From a virus (Duplodnaviria; Heunggongvirae; Uroviricota; Caudoviricetes): DNA of 17,428 nucleotides. This document shows, one piece after another, positions 8,814 to 15,938 of the stretch. The notes below the pieces were generated by a model. That model made no database searches. It had not been told where the DNA came from and was given only the letters and a program-made list of their open reading frames with translations. Position 1 is the first letter of the stretch. The number at the start of each line of letters is the position of its first letter. The DNA lies in the IMG/VR virus record IMGVR_UViG_2657244986_000007, positions 1 to 17,428 of that record. The stretch is one strand, 5' to 3'. Made by a program: the position numbers and the translations under genes.

Positions 8814-10166
<1,353 letters not shown>

Positions 10167-10216
10167 TCCTCACCTCGATTTCGATAACCAAAAAACAAAC
10201 TATTTTCCGTTTAAAA

Positions 10217-10284
10217 ACAATGGAGTTTGTTTTTCACGCCCCTTTTTACAATATTTCTTGTTTACAACATACAATCTTTCTTGT
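10217..10284. promoter_or_regulatory. Left operator OL (three 434-type sites) with pL
   Basis: ACAATGGAGTTTGT (10217-10230), ACAATATTTCTTGT (10248-10261) and ACAATCTTTCTTGT (10271-10284), all ACAA-N6-TTGT. Confidence 0.85.
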
Positions 10285-10328
10285 AATTTTAAGCCATCAG
10301 CAGGACGCACTAACCACCATTGAAGGTG

Positions 10329-10359
10329 AGGCTCTTAAAAATTTAGCCCTGAAGAAGGG
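10329..10359 (+). promoter_or_regulatory. nutL (boxA plus boxB hairpin)
   Basis: GGCTCTTAAAAATTTAGCCCTGAAGAAGGGC: boxA-like GCTCTTAAA and the boxB stem-loop GCCCTGAAGAAGGGC. Confidence 0.8.
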
Positions 10360-10470
10360 CAGCATTCAAAGCAGAAAGCTTTGAGTAGCGCGAAATGCAG
10401 CTGCAAGGCAGCAACCGTGGAGATAAGCATCACGGCGCGTTACTCAAAGCTAACTGACAGGAGAATCCAG

Positions 10471-11368
<898 letters not shown>

Positions 11369-11401
11369 TTAAAAGACAGGCATACTAATAAACACTGCAC
11401 T

Positions 11402-11429
11402 GTGTATTCATTCCAACGAGTGAATACAC
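11402..11429. repeat. Perfect 9-bp inverted repeat, GTGTATTCA-N10-TGAATACAC
   Basis: Seen directly in the sequence. No U-tract on either strand, so it looks operator-like or RNA-structural rather than a terminator. Confidence 0.6.
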
Positions 11430-11491
11430 GGAGCAATGTCGCTCGTAACTAAACAGGAGCCGACTTGTTCTGATTATTGGAAATCTTCTTT

Positions 11492-11519
11492 GCCCTCCAA
11501 TGTGAGGGCAGTTTTTTTT
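11492..11519 (+). terminator. Intrinsic terminator (tL-like) 13 nt upstream of the next start codon
   Basis: GCCCTC-CAATGT-GAGGGC followed by AGTTTTTTTT. Confidence 0.7.
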
Positions 11520-11532
11520 GACGGAGTAAACG

Positions 11533-11781
11533 ATGATAAAAACTGATTACCCTGCAGAGCTTAAACAAAAAGTAATAACAGCAATTAAATGCTCTTTTAT
11601 CTCATGTCGTACAGATGAAGAACGATATGTCGTTGAGTGTGCAATTGTCGAGTTTCTCACAGCGATGGAATTTACCGCTGCAGAATCAATAGATGTATTA
11701 AAGCAATCAGACGGAAATGATATTGAAACGGATGATGTTATTGACCGACTAATAAAATCATTCGAAGAAGAAATAGAGTAG
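11533..11781 (+). CDS. Small acidic protein, 82 aa, unknown function
   Basis: MIKTDYPAELKQKVITAIKCSFISCRTDEERYVVECAIVEF...DGNDIETDDVIDRLIKSFEEEIE, with an acidic C-terminus. GGAG Shine-Dalgarno upstream. Confidence 0.65.
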   Translation: MIKTDYPAELKQKVITAIKCSFISCRTDEERYVVECAIVEFLTAMEFTAAESIDVLKQSDGNDIETDDVIDRLIKSFEEEIE

Positions 11782-11864
11782 CCGCCTGAGCGCGGCTTTA
11801 CCGCATACCAATAATGCTTCACGAGAGGCATTTTCGTTATGCAATCAAATATAAGGAGTTACCC

Positions 11865-11999
11865 ATGATGCACTTTCAGCTCGCGGGTAGCGGCGTCATG
11901 TCCGCTTTCTACCCGCACGAATCTGAATTATCACGCCGAGTTAAACAATTAATCAGAGCAGCAAAGAAACAACTGGAGGCGTTATGCGCAATGAAATAG
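11865..11999 (+). CDS. cIII: CIII-like small protein (putative FtsH-inhibitor helix), 44 aa
   Basis: MMHFQLAGSGVMSAFYPHESELSRRVKQLIRAAKKQLEALCAMK. Its central amphipathic helix resembles lambda CIII (ESLLERITRKLRDGWKRL). AAGGAG Shine-Dalgarno upstream. Confidence 0.55.
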   Translation: MMHFQLAGSGVMSAFYPHESELSRRVKQLIRAAKKQLEALCAMK

Positions 12000-12136
12000 C
12001 CATTAATCACCAGATGCTTCGTGCTGCACAGAACAAAGCAGTAATAGCCAGATTTATTGGTGATTCCAAAATGTGGCTTGAAGCAAATAAAGCGATGAAA
12101 TCAGCCATCAACCTTCCGTGGTATCGCAGGAAATGA
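11984..12136 (+). CDS. Small protein, 50 aa, possibly Kil-like
   Basis: Hand translation: MRNEIAINHQMLRAAQNKAVIARFIGDSKMWLEANKAMKSAINLPWYRRK. GGAGG Shine-Dalgarno upstream; overlaps the cIII-like 3' end in another frame. The Kil assignment is a recollection of a FIGDxKM-like motif, unverified. Confidence 0.4.
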   Translation: MRNEIAINHQMLRAAQNKAVIARFIGDSKMWLEANKAMKSAINLPWYRRK

Positions 12137-12211
12137 GTTTTACAGATAACTGGTAAGACGAAGAATTCATTCGTCAGATGAAAGAATTAATCGGTAACGA
12201 AGGAGATATTC

Positions 12212-12382
12212 ATGTCACTTGCAACCACAGTGAAGGAGAGCAAGTTACAGAGACGCATGTACACGCAGAAAGCTCTCTGGTATCGCCATAATGGCGACCG
12301 CGAAGGAATGCGGGTATGCCTTAATTTGTCCCGAGTCGAAGTATTAAATCAGCGTTATTTTCTTGGGCCATGTCCATTCTGA
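12212..12382 (+). CDS. Small hypothetical protein, 56 aa
   Basis: MSLATTVKESKLQRRMYTQKALWYRHNGDREGMRVCLNLSRVEVLNQRYFLGPCPF. AAGGAGA Shine-Dalgarno upstream. Ends 8 nt before the annealing-protein start. Confidence 0.4.
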   Translation: MSLATTVKESKLQRRMYTQKALWYRHNGDREGMRVCLNLSRVEVLNQRYFLGPCPF

Positions 12383-12390
12383 GGTGATTT

Positions 12391-13098
12391 ATGGATTTGA
12401 ATAAATTCGATGAGCCATTCAGCCCTGAAGATATCGAATGGCGAATACAGCAAAGCGGTAAAACACGCGATGGCAAAGTGTGGGCTATGGTGCTGGCTTA
12501 TGTCACGAACCGGGCAATCATGAAACGCCTGGACGATGTTTGCGGCAAAGCAGGATGGCGCAATGAATACCGCGATATTCCCAACAACGGAGGCGTTGAA
12601 TGCGGCATATCAATCAGGATTGATTCCGAATGGGTAACCAAATGGGATGCTGCTGAAAACACGCAGGTAGAAGCCGTCAAAGGTGGTCGTTCAGGTGCAA
12701 TGAAGCGTGCTGCCGTTCAGTGGGGAATCGGTCGGTATCTGTATAACCTTGAGGAAGGTTTCGCACAAACATCTCTCGATAAAAAGCATGGGTGGCACAG
12801 GGCAAAACTGAAGGATGGAACAGGATTTTACTGGTCCCCTCCATCGCTGCCGGGCTGGGCAATCCCAGCATCAGATAACAAACCATCACCAGAAAATACC
12901 AACCAGAAATCTCCATCGGTTGACTGCGAACAAATCCTGAAAGACTTCAGCGATTATGCGTCAACAGAAACTGACAAGAAAAAACTCATCGAGCGTTATC
13001 AGCGTGACTGGCAATTAATGGCTGGCAACGAGGAGGCGCAGGCTAAATGCGTTCAGGTAATGAACATCAGAGTTAACGAGCTAAAACAGGCGGCATAA
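12391..13098 (+). CDS. Single-strand annealing recombinase, Rad52/Rad22 family, 235 aa
   Basis: Central motif ...GGRSGAMKRAAVQWGIGRYLYNL... is typical of Rad52-type phage annealing proteins. Located upstream of SSB and an exonuclease. Confidence 0.8.
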   Translation: MDLNKFDEPFSPEDIEWRIQQSGKTRDGKVWAMVLAYVTNRAIMKRLDDVCGKAGWRNEYRDIPNNGGVECGISIRIDSEWVTKWDAAENTQVEAVKGGRSGAMKRAAVQWGIGRYLYNLEEGFAQTSLDKKHGWHRAKLKDGTGFYWSPPSLPGWAIPASDNKPSPENTNQKSPSVDCEQILKDFSDYASTETDKKKLIERYQRDWQLMAGNEEAQAKCVQVMNIRVNELKQAA

Positions 13099-13572
13099 AT
13101 GGCAAGCAGAGGCGTAAATAAGGTGATCATTATTGGTCGCCTTGGGCATGATCCAGAAATCAGATATTCACCATCAGGAACGGCATTTGCAAACCTTACA
13201 GTTGCTACGTCAGAACAATGGCGTGATAAGCAAACTGGAGAGCAAAAGGAGCAGACGGAGTGGCACCGCGTGGTAATGAGCGGGAAACTGGCAGAAATTG
13301 CCAGCGAATATCTGCGAAAAGGCTCTGAGGTTTATCTTGAAGGAAAATTGCGGACAAGAAAATGGCAGGATCAAAGCGGACAGGATCGGTTCACTACCGA
13401 AGTCATCGTGGGCGTTGGTGGAACCATGCAAATGCTTGGTGGCAAGCAAGGAGGCAATGAACAGTCTTCACCTCAGCGAAATAACGGCCAGCAACAAAGA
13501 CAGCAATCTCAGCAGCATGGGAATCACAGCGAACCACCTATGAACTTCGACGATTCGGATATTCCGTTCTAG
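13099..13572 (+). CDS. ssb: Single-stranded DNA-binding protein (SSB), 157 aa
   Basis: OB-fold N-terminus ([43 protein letters not shown]...TEWHRVV), Gly/Gln-rich linker and acidic tail ending DDSDIPF. Confidence 0.95.
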
Positions 13573-13581
13573 GAGCTGAAT

Positions 13582-14061
13582 ATGAAAGTCTGCTCAAGAT
13601 GCCATCAACAGAAGGAAGAAAGGGACTTTCAAATCAGAAGAGCATCCAGAGATGGATTAACTGCCGCTTGCCGGGCTTGCCTGGCTGAATACGACAAAGA
13701 ACGCGCTGGATTGCCACATCGAGTATCAGCAAGGAGAGAATATCAATCATCGGAACGCGGAAGAGAACGGTGTAACGCAGCCAAAAAGCGGTTCATTCAG
13801 AGCAACCCATGGAAAAGAAAAGCCCACATCATTGTGGGTAATTTTTTGCGCGACGGTAAGCTAATCCGACCACCACAATGTGAGTGCTGCGGATCAGAAT
13901 GTAAACCACAGGCGCACCACTGCGACTACAGCAAACCAACCGATGTGATGTGGCTCTGCAAGTCATGTCATGTCGAGTGGCACAAACATAACAAACCTAT
14001 CTACCCAGACGAGGAACCAGTAACTCTCCCCTTCCCTCGTCACGCTATTCACGCAATTTAA
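13582..14061 (+). CDS. HNH-family endonuclease, 159 aa
   Basis: Cys pairs CSRCH, CRAC and CECCG, plus ...QAHHCDYSKPTDVMWLCKSCHVEWH, consistent with an HNH/zinc-binding nuclease motif. Confidence 0.7.
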   Translation: MKVCSRCHQQKEERDFQIRRASRDGLTAACRACLAEYDKERAGLPHRVSARREYQSSERGRERCNAAKKRFIQSNPWKRKAHIIVGNFLRDGKLIRPPQCECCGSECKPQAHHCDYSKPTDVMWLCKSCHVEWHKHNKPIYPDEEPVTLPFPRHAIHAI

Positions 14062-14069
14062 GGACTTAC

Positions 14070-14618
14070 ATGAATCACTTGATGGTTGACCTTGAAACAA
14101 TGGGCAACGGGCCATACGCGCCAGTTATTTCTATTGGGGCGGTATTCTTTGACCCGAATACCGGAGAAACAGGAGAAGAGTTCTCGGTAAATATCTCGCT
14201 TGAATCATCAATGCGATATCGAGCGCGTCCTGACGCTTCAACGATTTTATGGTGGCTGGAACAGAGTGAAGAAGCCAGAAAATCGCTAACCAGCAACACT
14301 CAGGAGCTTTCAACGGCTCTTTCATGGTTATCTGAATTCATCATAAAGAACGCTAACCACAAATTCGTTCAGGTTTGGGGGAATGGAGCATCATTTGACT
14401 GCGTTATTCTCCGAAACAGTTATTCGCTGACAGGGCAGCCAGTTCCGTGGCAGTGGTGGAATGACCGCGACGTAAGAACAATCGTCGAACTTGGGAAGGT
14501 AATAGGATTCGACCCTAAGCGAGATATGCCATTCAAAGGAACTCGCCACAACGCGCTTGATGATGCCATTCACCAAGCCAAATACGTTTCAGCGATCTGG
14601 AAAAAGTTAGCTAAATAA
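14070..14618 (+). CDS. 3'-5' exonuclease, DEDD (DnaQ-like) family, 182 aa
   Basis: Exo I motif MVDLETMG and Exo III motif H-NALDDA; size and layout fit DEDDh exonucleases. Confidence 0.8.
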   Translation: MNHLMVDLETMGNGPYAPVISIGAVFFDPNTGETGEEFSVNISLESSMRYRARPDASTILWWLEQSEEARKSLTSNTQELSTALSWLSEFIIKNANHKFVQVWGNGASFDCVILRNSYSLTGQPVPWQWWNDRDVRTIVELGKVIGFDPKRDMPFKGTRHNALDDAIHQAKYVSAIWKKLAK

Positions 14619-14634
14619 TCAACAGGAGAAAACC

Positions 14635-14931
14635 ATGCCAGCGCCTCTGTATGGTGCGGATGACGCGCGCCGCTGTTCCGGCAATTCCGTATCGGAGGTG
14701 CTGGATAAATTCAGAAAAAACTACGATCGGATAATGTCGCTACCGCAGGAAACGAAAGAGGAAAAGGAATTTCGCCATTGTATATGGCTTGCAGAGAAAG
14801 AAGAACGAGAGCGAATTTACCAGACATCAATCCGACCATTCCGCAAAGCCACATATACCCAATTCCCTGAATATATCGACCCGCGCCTGCGTAATTACCG
14901 CTCACGCTATGGCGCTATCAGTAATGACTGA
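14635..14931 (+). CDS. Hypothetical protein, 98 aa
   Basis: ORF with AGGAGA Shine-Dalgarno upstream; no recognisable motif. Confidence 0.55.
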
Positions 14932-14941
14932 GGAATTTACC

Positions 14942-15109
14942 ATGAGAGGACTTGCATACAATCCCGGCATTCTTCCGGCAGAAATGATTATTCGCCAACG
15001 CGTAAAGCCAATGCCATCGAGAGAGGAATTGCTTAAGAGAAAGAGTTTCGGTTCTGTTAATGACAACAAATATCTGAATGCGATGTTGCGCAAAGGAGGC
15101 AACCGGTGA
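14942..15109 (+). CDS. Hypothetical small protein, 55 aa
   Basis: [55 protein letters not shown], with GAGGAA upstream. The track ORF 14789..15109 is probably an extension. Confidence 0.45.
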
Positions 15110-15189
15110 CTGGACATGCAGCGATCCTCGACATGTGCTGTGGCAGCCGCATGTTCTGGTTAGATAAGAATGACGAACGGGCGAGATAA
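15106..15189 (+). pseudogene. 27-codon ORF with a strong RBS, possibly a truncated methyltransferase N-terminus (gene remnant)
   Basis: AGGAGG lies 5 nt before a GTG that overlaps the preceding stop (GTGA). Peptide (M)[26 protein letters not shown]; ILDMCCGS resembles SAM-binding motif I. Stops in all frames follow. Confidence 0.3.
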
Positions 15190-15239
15190 GCGATCGGTTA
15201 AGTGCTATAGTAATGCGCTTTTGTATTTATGGAGTGAAT

Positions 15240-15938
15240 ATGAAAAATATCCTACTGGCATCATTGTTAGTGGCATCGCCGGGTGCATTTGCAGCCAGCT
15301 TTGACTGCCAAAAGGCTTCGACAGCAATCGAACATAAAATCTGCGATAACGAACGTCTGTCAAAATTAGACGAACAGCTTAGCTCTGCCTATTCTAGTGC
15401 CCTCAAAGAAAACCCAGAGAACGCAGACACCATAAAAATGGTTCAACGTCAGTGGGTAAATATGCGTGGAAAACTCACTGATAATAAGGCTCTGGAGCTG
15501 GCTTATCTTATCCAAATTAATGGCCTCAAAGGTTTGGGGAGTTCAGTCAGCGTAACAGCGGCCAATGAGATACCCACGTCGACGCAGAAACATTCTGAAG
15601 AGCAGGAAGAAACAAGTAAGGCAGAAGTTAAGTCGGTCAAGAACGGCAATAAGCTAACCTTAGAGTCATTCCGAGCTAAATATGTAGAAGTAGATGGTGA
15701 GTATTACAGCACGACATCCATTCCTAGAGGCAGTTCGTTCTTGTTCACTTGCGCCAGTCGTATTGCTGATGACCAAGTGAATGTTTGGAAGAAACATGCA
15801 GCCAAAGAGGGCAAAATCGACCTATTCTTTGAGGTTGAGAATCACTTACACACTGCTATGTTGAACGCCAATTTCCAGAAGTTGAATTCAGACCCTGCCA
15901 AAAGAGGTATTTGTAATCTGATTAACGCAGTGCCGTAA
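15240..15938 (+). CDS. Secreted protein with an N-terminal LprI-like (DUF1311, lysozyme-inhibitor-like) domain, 232 aa
   Basis: Signal peptide MKNILLASLLVASPGAFA, then FDCQKASTAIEHKICDNERLSKLDEQLSSAYSSALKE...QRQWVNMRG, the hallmark DUF1311 pattern. AT-rich gene. The track start at 15213 is an extension. Confidence 0.75.
   Translation: MKNILLASLLVASPGAFAASFDCQKASTAIEHKICDNERLSKLDEQLSSAYSSALKENPENADTIKMVQRQWVNMRGKLTDNKALELAYLIQINGLKGLGSSVSVTAANEIPTSTQKHSEEQEETSKAEVKSVKNGNKLTLESFRAKYVEVDGEYYSTTSIPRGSSFLFTCASRIADDQVNVWKKHAAKEGKIDLFFEVENHLHTAMLNANFQKLNSDPAKRGICNLINAVP

Follow-up and report, generated by a model that had tools for sequence, protein, structure and literature searches.

cIII, kil and a conserved small gene preceding the annealing gene in the leftward early operon of a lambda-like prophage

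The amphipathic helix of the lambda CIII protein competitively inhibits the membrane protease FtsH, and the essential region of lambda CIII comprises the 24 residues 14–37 (Kobiler et al. 2007, PMC1838920). The same work catalogued an HK022 class of CIII, the proteins of HK022, HK97 and H-19B having the same sequence. Lambda Kil transiently blocks assembly of the FtsZ ring in a ZipA-dependent manner (Haeusser et al. 2014, PMC3961180; Naha et al. 2025, PMC11762379). A C-terminal RSK/RSSK motif is present in nearly all lambda Kil homologues, and the Kil proteins tested by Naha et al. 2025 were those of lambda and HK629 (PMC11762379); in the literature searched, we found no functional test of the 50-aa HK022/HK97 Kil subtype. 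Among recombination genes, the HK620 sak4 and ssb genes gave the same level of oligonucleotide recombineering as the whole module with hkaM (PMC5928155), and this equal level implies that HkaM is dispensable for that oligonucleotide recombineering reaction. Our search of the literature on hkaM or on an SSB-tail mimic returned nothing further than Hutinet et al. 2018.

Three small ORFs in the middle of the PL operon

The window analysed here is a 17,428-nt stretch of phage DNA in which a preliminary description had placed a cluster of three small ORFs. All three are present on the + strand at 11865–12382, and the region belongs to a lambda-like prophage, forming the middle of its leftward early (PL) operon. 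With neighbouring genes named through their Pfam and PHROGs matches, the gene order reads N, a ral-like anti-restriction gene, cIII, kil, a dead Sf6 gene 30-like ORF, ORF56 (the 56-aa third ORF of the cluster), a Rad52-like annealing gene, ssb, an exonuclease gene and abc2; the order in HK97, ECP1, Sf6, HK022, P22, lambda and HK620 is as in the window. The E. coli ST12468 prophage matches the window exactly, and comparison of NZ_CP103694.1 with window positions 8865–15390 returned 0 mismatches over 6526 nt. cIII, kil and ORF56 are genes already known from lambda-like phages and hold nothing new; their identities as CIII, Kil and a member of the HkaM/HK97 gp42/Sf6 gp29 family are assigned with high confidence.

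The ORFs are beyond chance because each has strong family matches and an exact copy in at least 1000 public contigs, and because ORF56 evolves under constraint, with a pN/pS of 0.30. The strong Shine–Dalgarno (SD) sequence described for every ORF is likewise there. Pairing energies with the 3′ end of the 16S rRNA are −8.8 kcal/mol for cIII (top 2.1% of window ATGs), −9.3 kcal/mol for kil (top 1.7%) and −8.8 kcal/mol for ORF56 (top 2.1%); that is, just 1.7–2.1% of the window’s 660 ATGs on both strands pair equally strongly, and each ORF falls in the top ~2%. The picture of tightly packed or overlapping genes applies to cIII and kil, which overlap by 16 nt (11984–11999), but not to kil and ORF56, which lie 75 nt apart. 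Three real ORFs do form the cluster, although a fourth, at 12133–12291 and overlapping ORF56, had gone unlisted.

Upstream of the cluster, a GC-rich hairpin at 11780–11797 (+ strand), 3′ of the ral-like gene, occupies the position of the ‘putative terminator’ annotated just before cIII in HK97, where it lies 67–90 nt 5′ of the gene. The T-tract of the window hairpin, itself a putative terminator, is weak. An Rfam scan of positions 9000–13500 gave chance-level matches only.

CIII and Kil proteins of the HK022 type

The cIII gene (11865–11999, + strand) encodes a 44-aa CIII of the HK022 type. Its product matches Pfam PF08134 with 104.7 bits (cut-off 25; E 2e-30), is 100% identical to HK022 CIII over all 44 residues (exact entry UniProt RPC3_BPHK0), and is named ‘protease FtsH-inhibitory lysogeny factor CIII’ by PGAP in an identical genome, so that what had been called cIII-like is CIII. 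The SD, AAGGAG at 11853–11858 (+ strand), is separated from the ATG at 11865 by a 6-nt spacer. The ORF track with a 60-aa cut-off, which was said to have missed all three ORFs, did leave out the 50-aa Kil and the 56-aa ORF56, but carries cIII in the form of a spurious 61-aa extension from 11814, a start lacking an SD (−1.5 kcal/mol). The amphipathic helix proposed for the protein is borne out by residues 21–38, ELSRRVKQLIRAAKKQLE, which have a hydrophobic moment of 0.72, a value exceeded by none of 2000 shuffles. Its residues E19, S20, L22, R24, L29 and K34 are conserved in the CIII proteins of lambda, P22 and Sf6. By homology to lambda CIII, the window CIII would act through this helix to inhibit FtsH, thereby stabilising a CII-type activator and favouring lysogeny.

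Directly 3′ of cIII in the PL operon lies kil, with the same 16-nt overlap, an arrangement found also in HK97, HK022, Sf6, P22, lambda and HK620. The gene (11984–12136, + strand) encodes a predicted 50-aa cell-division inhibitor of the lambda Kil family, and its SD, GGAGG at 11975–11979 (+ strand), is embedded in the 3′ end of cIII with a 4-nt spacer to the ATG at 11984. The protein matches Pfam PF06301 (Lambda_Kil) with 72.6 bits (cut-off 27.6; E 1.7e-20) and phrog_2055 with an E value of 1.2e-35, and it is 100% identical to the Kil proteins of both HK022 and HK97. Against the lambda Kil core, BLASTP aligns it with 57% identity over 30 aa (17/30; E 3e-9), FIGD-KM being shared. In the AF2 model (pLDDT 86), a helix spanning residues 2–25 is joined by a G26–D27 turn to a second helix at 28–42, and the FIGD motif aligns with G19–D20 of lambda Kil (PMC11762379). 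The C-terminus, ...LPWYRRK, is basic and differs from the RSK/RSSK motif. The family match, the 57% core identity and the helix–turn–helix model together turn a possible resemblance to Kil into an identification; both similarities that the preliminary description had proposed to look for, to CIII and to Kil, exceed their Pfam cut-offs. Extrapolating from lambda Kil, the window protein, as a helix–GlyAsp–helix peptide, is predicted to block FtsZ ring assembly transiently and in dependence on ZipA, and induced cells would be expected to filament.

The cIII and kil sequences are identical to HK022 entries in UniProt, and ~17% of complete E. coli genomes carry them. For genome scanning, their recognition from sequence alone constitutes a clean positive control. 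The expectation that such genes are easily missed by automated annotation was met in part: PGAP names both CIII and Kil in the identical RefSeq genome, but its annotation there is empty across 12137–12390, skipping ORF56. ORF56 was uncalled by PGAP in both RefSeq genomes inspected, an intact gene 30 frame being preferred where present. Annotation is therefore inconsistent, with PGAP omitting ORF56 or picking the overlapping frame and PHROGs terming the family ‘recombinase’.

ORF56 as a coding gene overlapping a dead gene 30 frame

ORF56 (12212–12382, + strand, 56 aa) is preceded by the SD AAGGAG at 12200–12205 (+ strand), with a 6-nt spacer to its ATG at 12212. It ends 8 nt before the ATG of the strand-annealing gene, a Rad52-like gene of the Sf6 gene 28 type that is annotated ‘erf’ (12391–13098, + strand; Pfam Rad52_Rad22, 8.7e-26; phrog_1097, 1.8e-129). 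At the junction between the two (12380–12393, + strand), the TGA stop codon of ORF56 overlaps the erf SD (TGAGGTGA, −6.9 kcal/mol), and the same TGA-GGTGA junction is found 5′ of Rad52-like, Erf and Sak4 genes. The overlap of stop codon and SD suggests translational coupling, and ORF56 is probably coupled in this manner to the annealing gene.

The fourth ORF, which resembles Sf6 gene 30 (12133–12291, + strand, frame 1; phrog_2123), corresponds to the N-terminal portion of gp42.1 in HK97. Its start codon and the stop codon of kil overlap as ATGA; the frame is cut at codon 8 by an in-frame TAA at 12154–12156 and shares 80 nt with the ORF56 frame. The remnant 37-aa ORF in this frame (12178–12291) has no SD. 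Of 951 RefSeq records compared, only those of E. coli ST12468 carried the codon-8 TAA; the gene 30-like ORF is inactivated in the window prophage by a private nonsense mutation.

Which of the two overlapping frames is under selection was queried using substitutions. The first 80 ORF56 loci showed no variation in ORF56 (100% identity) and were hence biased for a selection test, so we re-sampled with kil-anchored loci. In that sample, seven substitutions in the overlap zone altered the gene 30 protein while remaining synonymous for ORF56, with one the reverse, and the part belonging to ORF56 only carried 22 synonymous and 16 non-synonymous substitutions. Selection in the overlap is thus seen in the ORF56 frame only, and the pN/pS of 0.30, computed over 45 distinct ORF56 sequences, denotes purifying selection. 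Homologues 48–63% identical to ORF56 occur in Erwinia and Enterobacter phages that have no overlapping gene 30 ORF. The C-terminal residues of ORF56 are conserved despite synonymous codon turnover, and a length of ~56 to 62 codons is maintained in the family down to 33% identity (HkaM). By these patterns of conservation, ORF56 is a real, translated-looking gene.

These data bear on two other accounts of the same nucleotides. One holds that ORF56 is untranslated and gene 30 the sole coding frame, the DNA being conserved as a module boundary or as the annealing gene’s leader and ribosome-binding region; the overlap of the ORF56 stop codon with the next gene’s SD would fit such an account, as would the PGAP annotation of the gene 30 frame, not ORF56, in FORC_041 and of neither in ST12468. 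The pN/pS value, the turnover of synonymous codons at invariant residues, the preserved length, the strong SD and a confident helical-hairpin model all contradict it, and we consider it extremely improbable. The other account joins gene 30 and ORF56 into one gene, through a programmed +1 frameshift or an ancestral fusion of which HK97 gp42.1, an 83-aa in-frame fusion, would be an example. The 80-nt overlap of the frames lends itself to this, and public protein sets contain at least eight different gene 30/ORF56 fusions of 76–82 aa. However, the junctions vary in position, a pattern expected of scattered 1-nt deletions or sequencing errors, and each fusion is a rare cluster of 1–4 members. ORF56 has its own strong SD and occurs without gene 30 in several phages, the overlap zone is selected in the ORF56 frame only, and the stop at codon 8 of the window gene 30 lies upstream of any possible frameshift site. 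A single joint gene is accordingly hardly to be expected, and we retain ORF56 as a gene in its own right.

Family, position and possible role of ORF56

ORF56 matches phrog_1723 over its full length (9.4e-36) and is 100% identical to Sf6 gp29, 73% to HK97 gp42 and 33% to HK620 HkaM (NP_112046); profile comparison with HkaM in hhalign gives a probability of 98.5% (E 2e-15). Judged by these similarities, it is a member of the HK97 gp42/Sf6 gp29/HK620 HkaM family, a small and uncharacterised one confined here to Enterobacterales phages. ORF56 has no Pfam or NCBIfam match. Searched exhaustively with an HMM, 1.84 billion representatives yielded 21 ORF56 clusters only, nearly all of 56–60 aa, the few long matches being low-complexity repeats. 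The AF2 model (mean pLDDT 90.5) consists of a helix at residues 7–27, a G28–D29 turn, a helix at 30–49 and a non-helical tail at 50–56; the helical hairpin is basic, and its C-terminal F-L-G-x-x-P-F is exposed. Compared by fold with the PDB, the model matched nothing beyond generic helical hairpins and designed mini-binders (best E 1.6). Members of the family are ~56–62 aa long and end in F-L-(G/S)-x(2-5)-P-F, to which ORF56 conforms, and family alignments are invariant at S10, A21, E43, F50, P55 and F56. When the C-terminal motif was sought with a degenerate DNA pattern, 12 loci were recovered, of which 9 were true. The sequence NQRYFLG was considered as a beta-clamp-binding motif, and this was rejected because the Gln varies across the family.

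Position is the second feature that unites the family. In the loci examined, its genes lie 7–10 nt 5′ of Rad52_Rad22, ERF or AAA_24/Sak4 genes, and at two loci that lack cIII, kil and gene 30 (L097 and L098) ORF56 still precedes annealing genes. In 22 of 80 loci an identical kil is present and ORF56 is absent, and these loci have no recombination genes in the ~1 kb 3′ of kil. From this distribution, ORF56 is conserved as the gene that opens the recombination module, regardless of the kind of annealing protein encoded next. The designation of the third ORF as a host-takeover gene is not sustained, as ORF56 travels with the recombination module and not with kil.

The same distribution speaks against ORF56 as a second Kil-like host-takeover peptide, a paralogue or analogue directed at the machinery of division or some other process in the host. 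The two proteins do look alike in outline: both are ~50 aa and carry a net positive charge (Kil +7, ORF56 +6), both are predicted to fold as helix–GlyAsp–helix hairpins, their genes are separated by just 75 nt, and a local resemblance can be drawn between QKALWYRHNGDREGM and NKAVIARFIGDSKMW. The helical hairpin is a generic fold, however, and profile–profile comparison in hhalign (0.8% probability) does not uphold the local similarity around the GD turn. Together with the loci in which ORF56 and kil occur one without the other, this renders a Kil-like activity very unlikely.

Could ORF56 instead be the functional equivalent of P22 Arf, directly stimulating the adjacent annealing protein, with the acidic gene 30-like ORF as unrelated filler? 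ORF56 occupies the position of arf directly 5′ of the annealing gene, HK620 hkaM was first annotated as arf because of its position (PMC5928155), and the PHROGs label of the ORF56 family is ‘recombinase’, a label for phrog_1723 for which we found no experimental basis. ORF56 nevertheless matches neither Pfam PF17585 nor phrog_2445, and HkaM brought no gain over Sak4 and SSB in recombineering (PMC5928155). The annealing proteins partnered with ORF56 come from three unrelated families, which makes a specific contact between ORF56 and an annealing domain unlikely. Such Arf-like signal as there is, a weak SDEEFI motif, resides in the gene 30-like ORF and not in ORF56. The gene 30-like ORF matches phrog_2445 (Arf) weakly (E 0.037), its profile aligns with the Arf profile in hhalign at 26.7% probability (E 7e-4) over 20 columns only, and the gene 30 protein has no match to Pfam PF17585 (Phage_Arf); one public source labels a protein 90% identical to it ‘accessory recombination function protein’. 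An Arf-equivalent ORF56 is, on balance, unlikely.

Our preferred model, offered tentatively, is that ORF56 would have a dispensable role, accessory or regulatory, in phage recombination, and may dock through its exposed, invariant F-L-G-x-x-P-F on a partner common to all such modules. Gene neighbourhood is the one pointer to a role in recombination, and it suggests it weakly. A more specific version, to which we assign a low likelihood, casts ORF56/HkaM as an adaptor or regulator used universally by phage recombination modules that depend on SSB, its C-terminal ...F-L-G-x-x-P-F-COOH mimicking the Pro-Phe-COOH tip of the SSB tail. The tip would then sit in the pocket for SSB tails on the annealing protein, or on a host enzyme that interacts with SSB, for example ExoI, RecJ, RecQ or PriA, and could thereby tune access to ssDNA ends. 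True SSB tails end in DDDIPF (E. coli), DSDIPF (the SSB of the window prophage) and NDYPPF (HK620). Such mimicry would fit the placement of the ORF56 gene before three unrelated annealing-protein families, its co-occurrence, in most of the loci examined, with a phage ssb gene, and its absence from lambda and P22, whose modules have no ssb; it fits poorly with the ORF56 tail, which is devoid of the acidic residues of true SSB tails. As the head of a recombination module, under purifying selection and with a strictly conserved C-terminal peptide, the ORF56 family is a possible lead, and its function might be relevant to recombineering tools that pair Erf or Sak4 with SSB.

The locus can be set against its described relatives gene by gene. 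No sequence difference separates the window CIII from that of HK022, which represents the second class of lambda CIII sequences. Lambda CIII is 28% identical to it in a multiple alignment, gives no significant BLASTP alignment and is 10 residues longer at the C-terminus, while its essential region, residues 14–37, corresponds to the amphipathic helix of the window protein. In lambda, too, the start of kil overlaps the end of cIII, and lambda Kil has in common with the window Kil model the succession of helix, G-D turn and helix; it is 47 aa long as compared to 50 aa for the window Kil, whose N-terminus is longer, and ends in RSSK/RSK rather than PWYRRK. P22 Arf resembles the gene 30-like ORF in lying between kil and the annealing gene, in a start that overlaps the end of kil, in its acidic character and in SDEEFI, at residues 6–11 as compared to 8–13, whereas the C-terminal halves of the two are unrelated. 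HkaM differs from ORF56 in its tail, FLSVPSELPF, which has three extra residues and a Ser where ORF56 has Gly, and in the gene that follows, Sak4 rather than Rad52-like; in length, predicted helical hairpin, C-terminal F-L...P-F and position before the annealing gene, HkaM, HK97 gp42 and Sf6 gp29 are as ORF56.

Start signals and the cIII and kil genes

Three small plus-strand ORFs lie within 11865–12382, each preceded by a canonical Shine-Dalgarno (SD) sequence: ORF1 (11865–11999, 44 aa beginning MMHFQ, SD AAGGAG at 11853–11858), ORF2 (11984–12136, 50 aa, SD GGAGG at 11975–11979), and ORF3 (12212–12382, 56 aa, SD AAGGAG at 12200–12205). Their predicted pairing with the 3′ end of 16S rRNA is −8.8, −9.3, and −8.8 kcal/mol, respectively, a strength equaled at only ~2% of the 660 ATGs in the window. 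Coordinates and SD pairing confirm the three ORFs of the preliminary description, all of them present; its tally overlooked a fourth (12133–12291), and its characterization of the cluster as overlapping applies to ORF1 and ORF2, which share 16 nt, but not to ORF3, which overlaps neither. The 60-aa ORF list does miss them, as had been stated: ORF2 and ORF3 are absent, and ORF1 appears only as a spurious 61-aa extension from an upstream, SD-less ATG.

ORF1 is cIII. It matches the Pfam cIII family (PF08134, 2e-30) and is 100% identical to HK022 CIII (UniProt RPC3_BPHK0); the CIII-like amphipathic helix proposed for it was recovered at residues 21–38, with a hydrophobic moment of 0.72, above all 2000 shuffles. 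The start codon region UUACCCAUGAUG is predicted to pair with codons 5–9 GCGGGUAGC (window 11858–11892), and the 126-nt stretch folded has a z-score of −2.1. Translation of lambda cIII is controlled by alternative mRNA structures, of which this predicted fold is reminiscent. Pairwise BLASTP of ORF1 against lambda CIII returned no alignment, and a multiple alignment including lambda CIII shows the AG...ES-L-R...L...K pattern retained in ORF1. CIII sequences form two classes, lambda-like and HK022-like, with the HK022, HK97, and H-19B proteins identical to each other (Kobiler et al. 2007, PMC1838920). In lambda CIII, an oligomeric amphipathic helix competitively inhibits FtsH, protecting CII (Kobiler et al. 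2007, PMC1838920); by homology, ORF1 CIII would act in the same manner.

ORF2 is kil. What had been put forward as possibly Kil-like matches Pfam Lambda_Kil (1.7e-20) and phrog_2055 (1.2e-35), and shares 100% identity with the HK022 and HK97 Kil proteins and 57% with the core of lambda Kil. A single-sequence AlphaFold2 model (pLDDT 86) places helices at residues 2–25 and 28–42 around a G26–D27 turn, the architecture of lambda Kil, in which a helix-turn-helix with a Gly-Asp turn is essential (Naha et al. 2025, PMC11762379). To break up FtsZ rings, lambda Kil depends on ZipA (Haeusser et al. 2014, PMC3961180), and the homologous ORF2 product would be expected to do likewise. Window 8865–15390 matches a chromosomal prophage of E. 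coli ST12468 (NZ_CP103694.1) without a single mismatch over 6526 nt, and in that genome PGAP names both cIII and kil.

An interrupted ORF between kil and ORF3

The fourth ORF (12133–12291, plus strand, frame 1) begins with an ATG overlapping the kil stop (ATGA). Sf6 gene 30 is the same ORF, intact, at 52 aa; here, translation from 12133 reads MSFTDNW*DEEFIRQMKELIGNEGD...SP, codon 8 having changed from TCA to TAA (12154–12156). Only the window and ST12468 carry the TAA among ~85 ORF3-anchored loci, and none of 79 kil-anchored loci has it. A 60-nt stretch joining the end of kil to the start of this ORF is found in 947 of 5426 complete E. coli genomes, and ST12468 alone matches it exactly, TAA included, among the 951 E. 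coli RefSeq records having that stretch. This confinement marks the mutation as private to the prophage. The gene 30-like ORF is dead in the window; the leftover 37-aa ORF (12178–12291) lacks an SD (−1.0 kcal/mol).

Elsewhere, at least three distinct acidic C-termini (35, 52, and 56 aa; public proteins P0095, P0096, and P0105) follow the 16-residue N-terminus MSFTDNWSDEEFIRQM, itself coupled to the kil stop in every case; such variety suggests that a mosaic junction lies within this very short ORF. Downstream of the 35-aa form, present on at least 1000 contigs (for example, 1335–1457 of the kil-anchored locus L112), the genes are unrelated, and in L112 and 21 other kil-anchored loci the ~1 kb covered after kil contains none for recombination. 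The N-terminus resembles that of P22 Arf (MQHEFSDEEFIALI...), likewise located between kil and erf. Scores against P22 Arf are weak (phrog_2445, E 0.037; hhalign probability 26.7%), and Pfam Phage_Arf is not matched; we regard the ORF as Arf-like by position and possibly by origin, short of a demonstrated member of that family.

ORF3, a small protein under selection

ORF3 matches phrog_1723 over its full length (9.4e-36) and Sf6 gp29 at 100% identity, followed by the HK022 copy (82%), HK97 gp42 (73%), and Erwinia and Enterobacter phage copies (48–63%); Pfam and NCBIfam gave no match. The family is a small one: clustering at 90% identity yields 35 groups, and 1.84 billion proteins include 21 representatives of it, nearly all members being 56–60 aa long and from Enterobacterales. 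Its pN/pS is 0.30 across 45 distinct sequences. In the 80-nt overlap of ORF3 with gene 30, queried in loci sampled through kil and hence unbiased for ORF3, seven substitutions alter the gene 30 protein while leaving that of ORF3 unchanged, versus one of the reverse kind; in the kil-anchored sample, synonymous and non-synonymous changes number 22 versus 16 in the ORF3-only segment and 4 versus 10 in the gene 30-only segment. Codons of invariant C-terminal residues turn over synonymously (Pro CCA/CCG/CCC/CCT, Phe TTC/TTT). ORF3 is a real gene for a translated-looking, selected small protein, a non-coding ORF3 being contradicted by the selection pattern, and the frame under selection in the overlap is that of ORF3, not the one preferred by PGAP. 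PGAP annotated nothing at window 12137–12390 in ST12468; in E. coli FORC_041 it annotated the gene 30 frame and not ORF3, despite purifying selection on the ORF3 frame.

HK97 gp42.1 (83 aa; 1831–2082 of the HK97 locus) fuses the gene 30 N-terminus in frame to an ORF3-frame C-terminus, and at least eight further fusions of 76–82 aa occur in public protein sets (P0001, P0002, P0005, P0021, P0023, P0024, P0027, and P0031), with varied join points. That the two ORFs yield one frameshift fusion product was rejected, as the database joins fall at many sites, as would result from 1-nt deletions or sequencing errors dispersed across the 80-nt overlap.

The AlphaFold2 model of ORF3 (18-sequence alignment, pLDDT 90.5) consists of helices 7–27 and 30–49 about a G28–D29 turn and a non-helical FLGPCPF tail; the net charge is +6. 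A Kil paralogue was rejected on profile comparison and gene distribution. ORF3 is homologous to HK620 HkaM (hhalign 98.5%, E 2e-15; BLASTP 33% identity, E 9e-10). The hkaM gene was originally labelled 'arf' on position alone, its product being an orphan of unknown function with no relation to P22 Arf, and sak4 plus ssb alone attain the recombineering level of the whole hkaM-containing module (Hutinet et al. 2018, PMC5928155). Reading ORF3 as an Arf analogue has position alone in its favor; it lacks sequence support and is weakened by those HK620 data. For the 'recombinase' label that PHROGs attaches to both small families, gene 30-like and ORF3, we found no experimental support. The 90%-identity cluster containing the exact ORF3 sequence (P0197–P0210) also holds ERF-family fragments sharing no sequence with ORF3; these look like a clustering artefact, which may be the source of the label.

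ORF3 in the recombination module and the early operon

In every context examined, 7–10 nt separate ORF3 from the first recombination gene, and the ORF3 stop often overlaps the SD of that gene (TTC TGA GGTGA); the two are probably linked through translational coupling. The neighbor is Rad52_Rad22 in the window, Sf6, and locus L097; ERF in HK97, HK022, and Kluyvera and Yersinia prophages; and AAA_24/Sak4 in HK620, Erwinia phage Eho59, Enterobacter phage MII_001, and a Pseudocitrobacter prophage. Salmonella phage S9-5 carries an HNH endonuclease gene (1079–1549 of its locus L090) exactly between the ORF3 homologue and erf, with the look of a homing-endonuclease insertion at a conserved junction. 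Loci L097 and L098 have ORF3 upstream of the annealing gene without cIII, kil, or gene 30, and, conversely, 22 of 80 loci with identical kil lack ORF3, carry gene 30 in its 35-aa form, and show no recombination gene in the ~1 kb covered downstream of kil. ORF3 is thus part of the recombination module rather than of the cIII-kil block.

Because the neighbors represent three unrelated annealing domains, the partner of ORF3 is likely common to all modules. It would be contacted via the FLGxxPF tail, an exposed and strictly conserved C-terminal peptide; candidates would be SSB, a C-terminal domain that the annealing proteins share, or a host enzyme acting on ssDNA, with ORF3 in an accessory role dispensable for oligonucleotide recombineering. 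In tblastn searches, Rad52-like, Erf, and Sak4 proteins gave separate matches inside single annealing genes at many loci (for example, HK97 and L009), which suggests a C-terminal domain shared among these otherwise unrelated proteins. Like SSB tails, the ORF3 tail has Pro-Phe-COOH at its tip; the SSB of the window prophage ends in DSDIPF, and that of HK620 in NDYPPF, which is needed for Sak4 stimulation (PMC5928155). That the ORF3 tail mimics an SSB tail is an attractive speculation, albeit a quite improbable one.

The leftward early (PL) operon runs along the plus strand in this region, encoding in order a LexA-like repressor, an N-type antiterminator (Pfam N36), a ral-like anti-restriction gene (phrog_14587), ORF1–ORF3 (11865–12382), the Rad52-like annealing gene, ssb, a 159-aa ORF (13582–14061), an Rv2179c-like 3′–5′ exonuclease, and the anti-RecBCD gene abc2. 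The 159-aa ORF has no Pfam or other family match and is unannotated by PGAP in ST12468; its start MKICSRCHQQKEE, as seen in locus L104, has a CxxC zinc-ribbon look. Between N and the ral-like gene, a 167-aa minus-strand ORF (10787–11290; no Pfam match, labelled hypothetical protein by PGAP) occupies the sieB position of P22 and lambda.

The overall interpretation in the preliminary description is supported, and the finding holds nothing new: the cIII and kil genes are textbook examples identical in sequence to those of HK022, and ORF3 has been annotated, its function unassigned, ever since the genomes of HK97, HK620, and Sf6 were published. Minor additions are the placement of ORF3 in the HkaM family and its link to recombination modules, whichever type of annealing protein they carry; the selection on its frame, rather than the PGAP-preferred one, in the overlap; and the private nonsense mutation in the Arf-position ORF of the window prophage. 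The nearest phages are mosaics of HK446, Sf6, and HK544. The layout is matched in HK97, ECP1, Sf6, HK022, P22, and HK620, where cIII and kil lead through one or two small ORFs into the recombination genes; lambda shares the order of cIII, kil, and recombination genes, but has no small ORFs in between.
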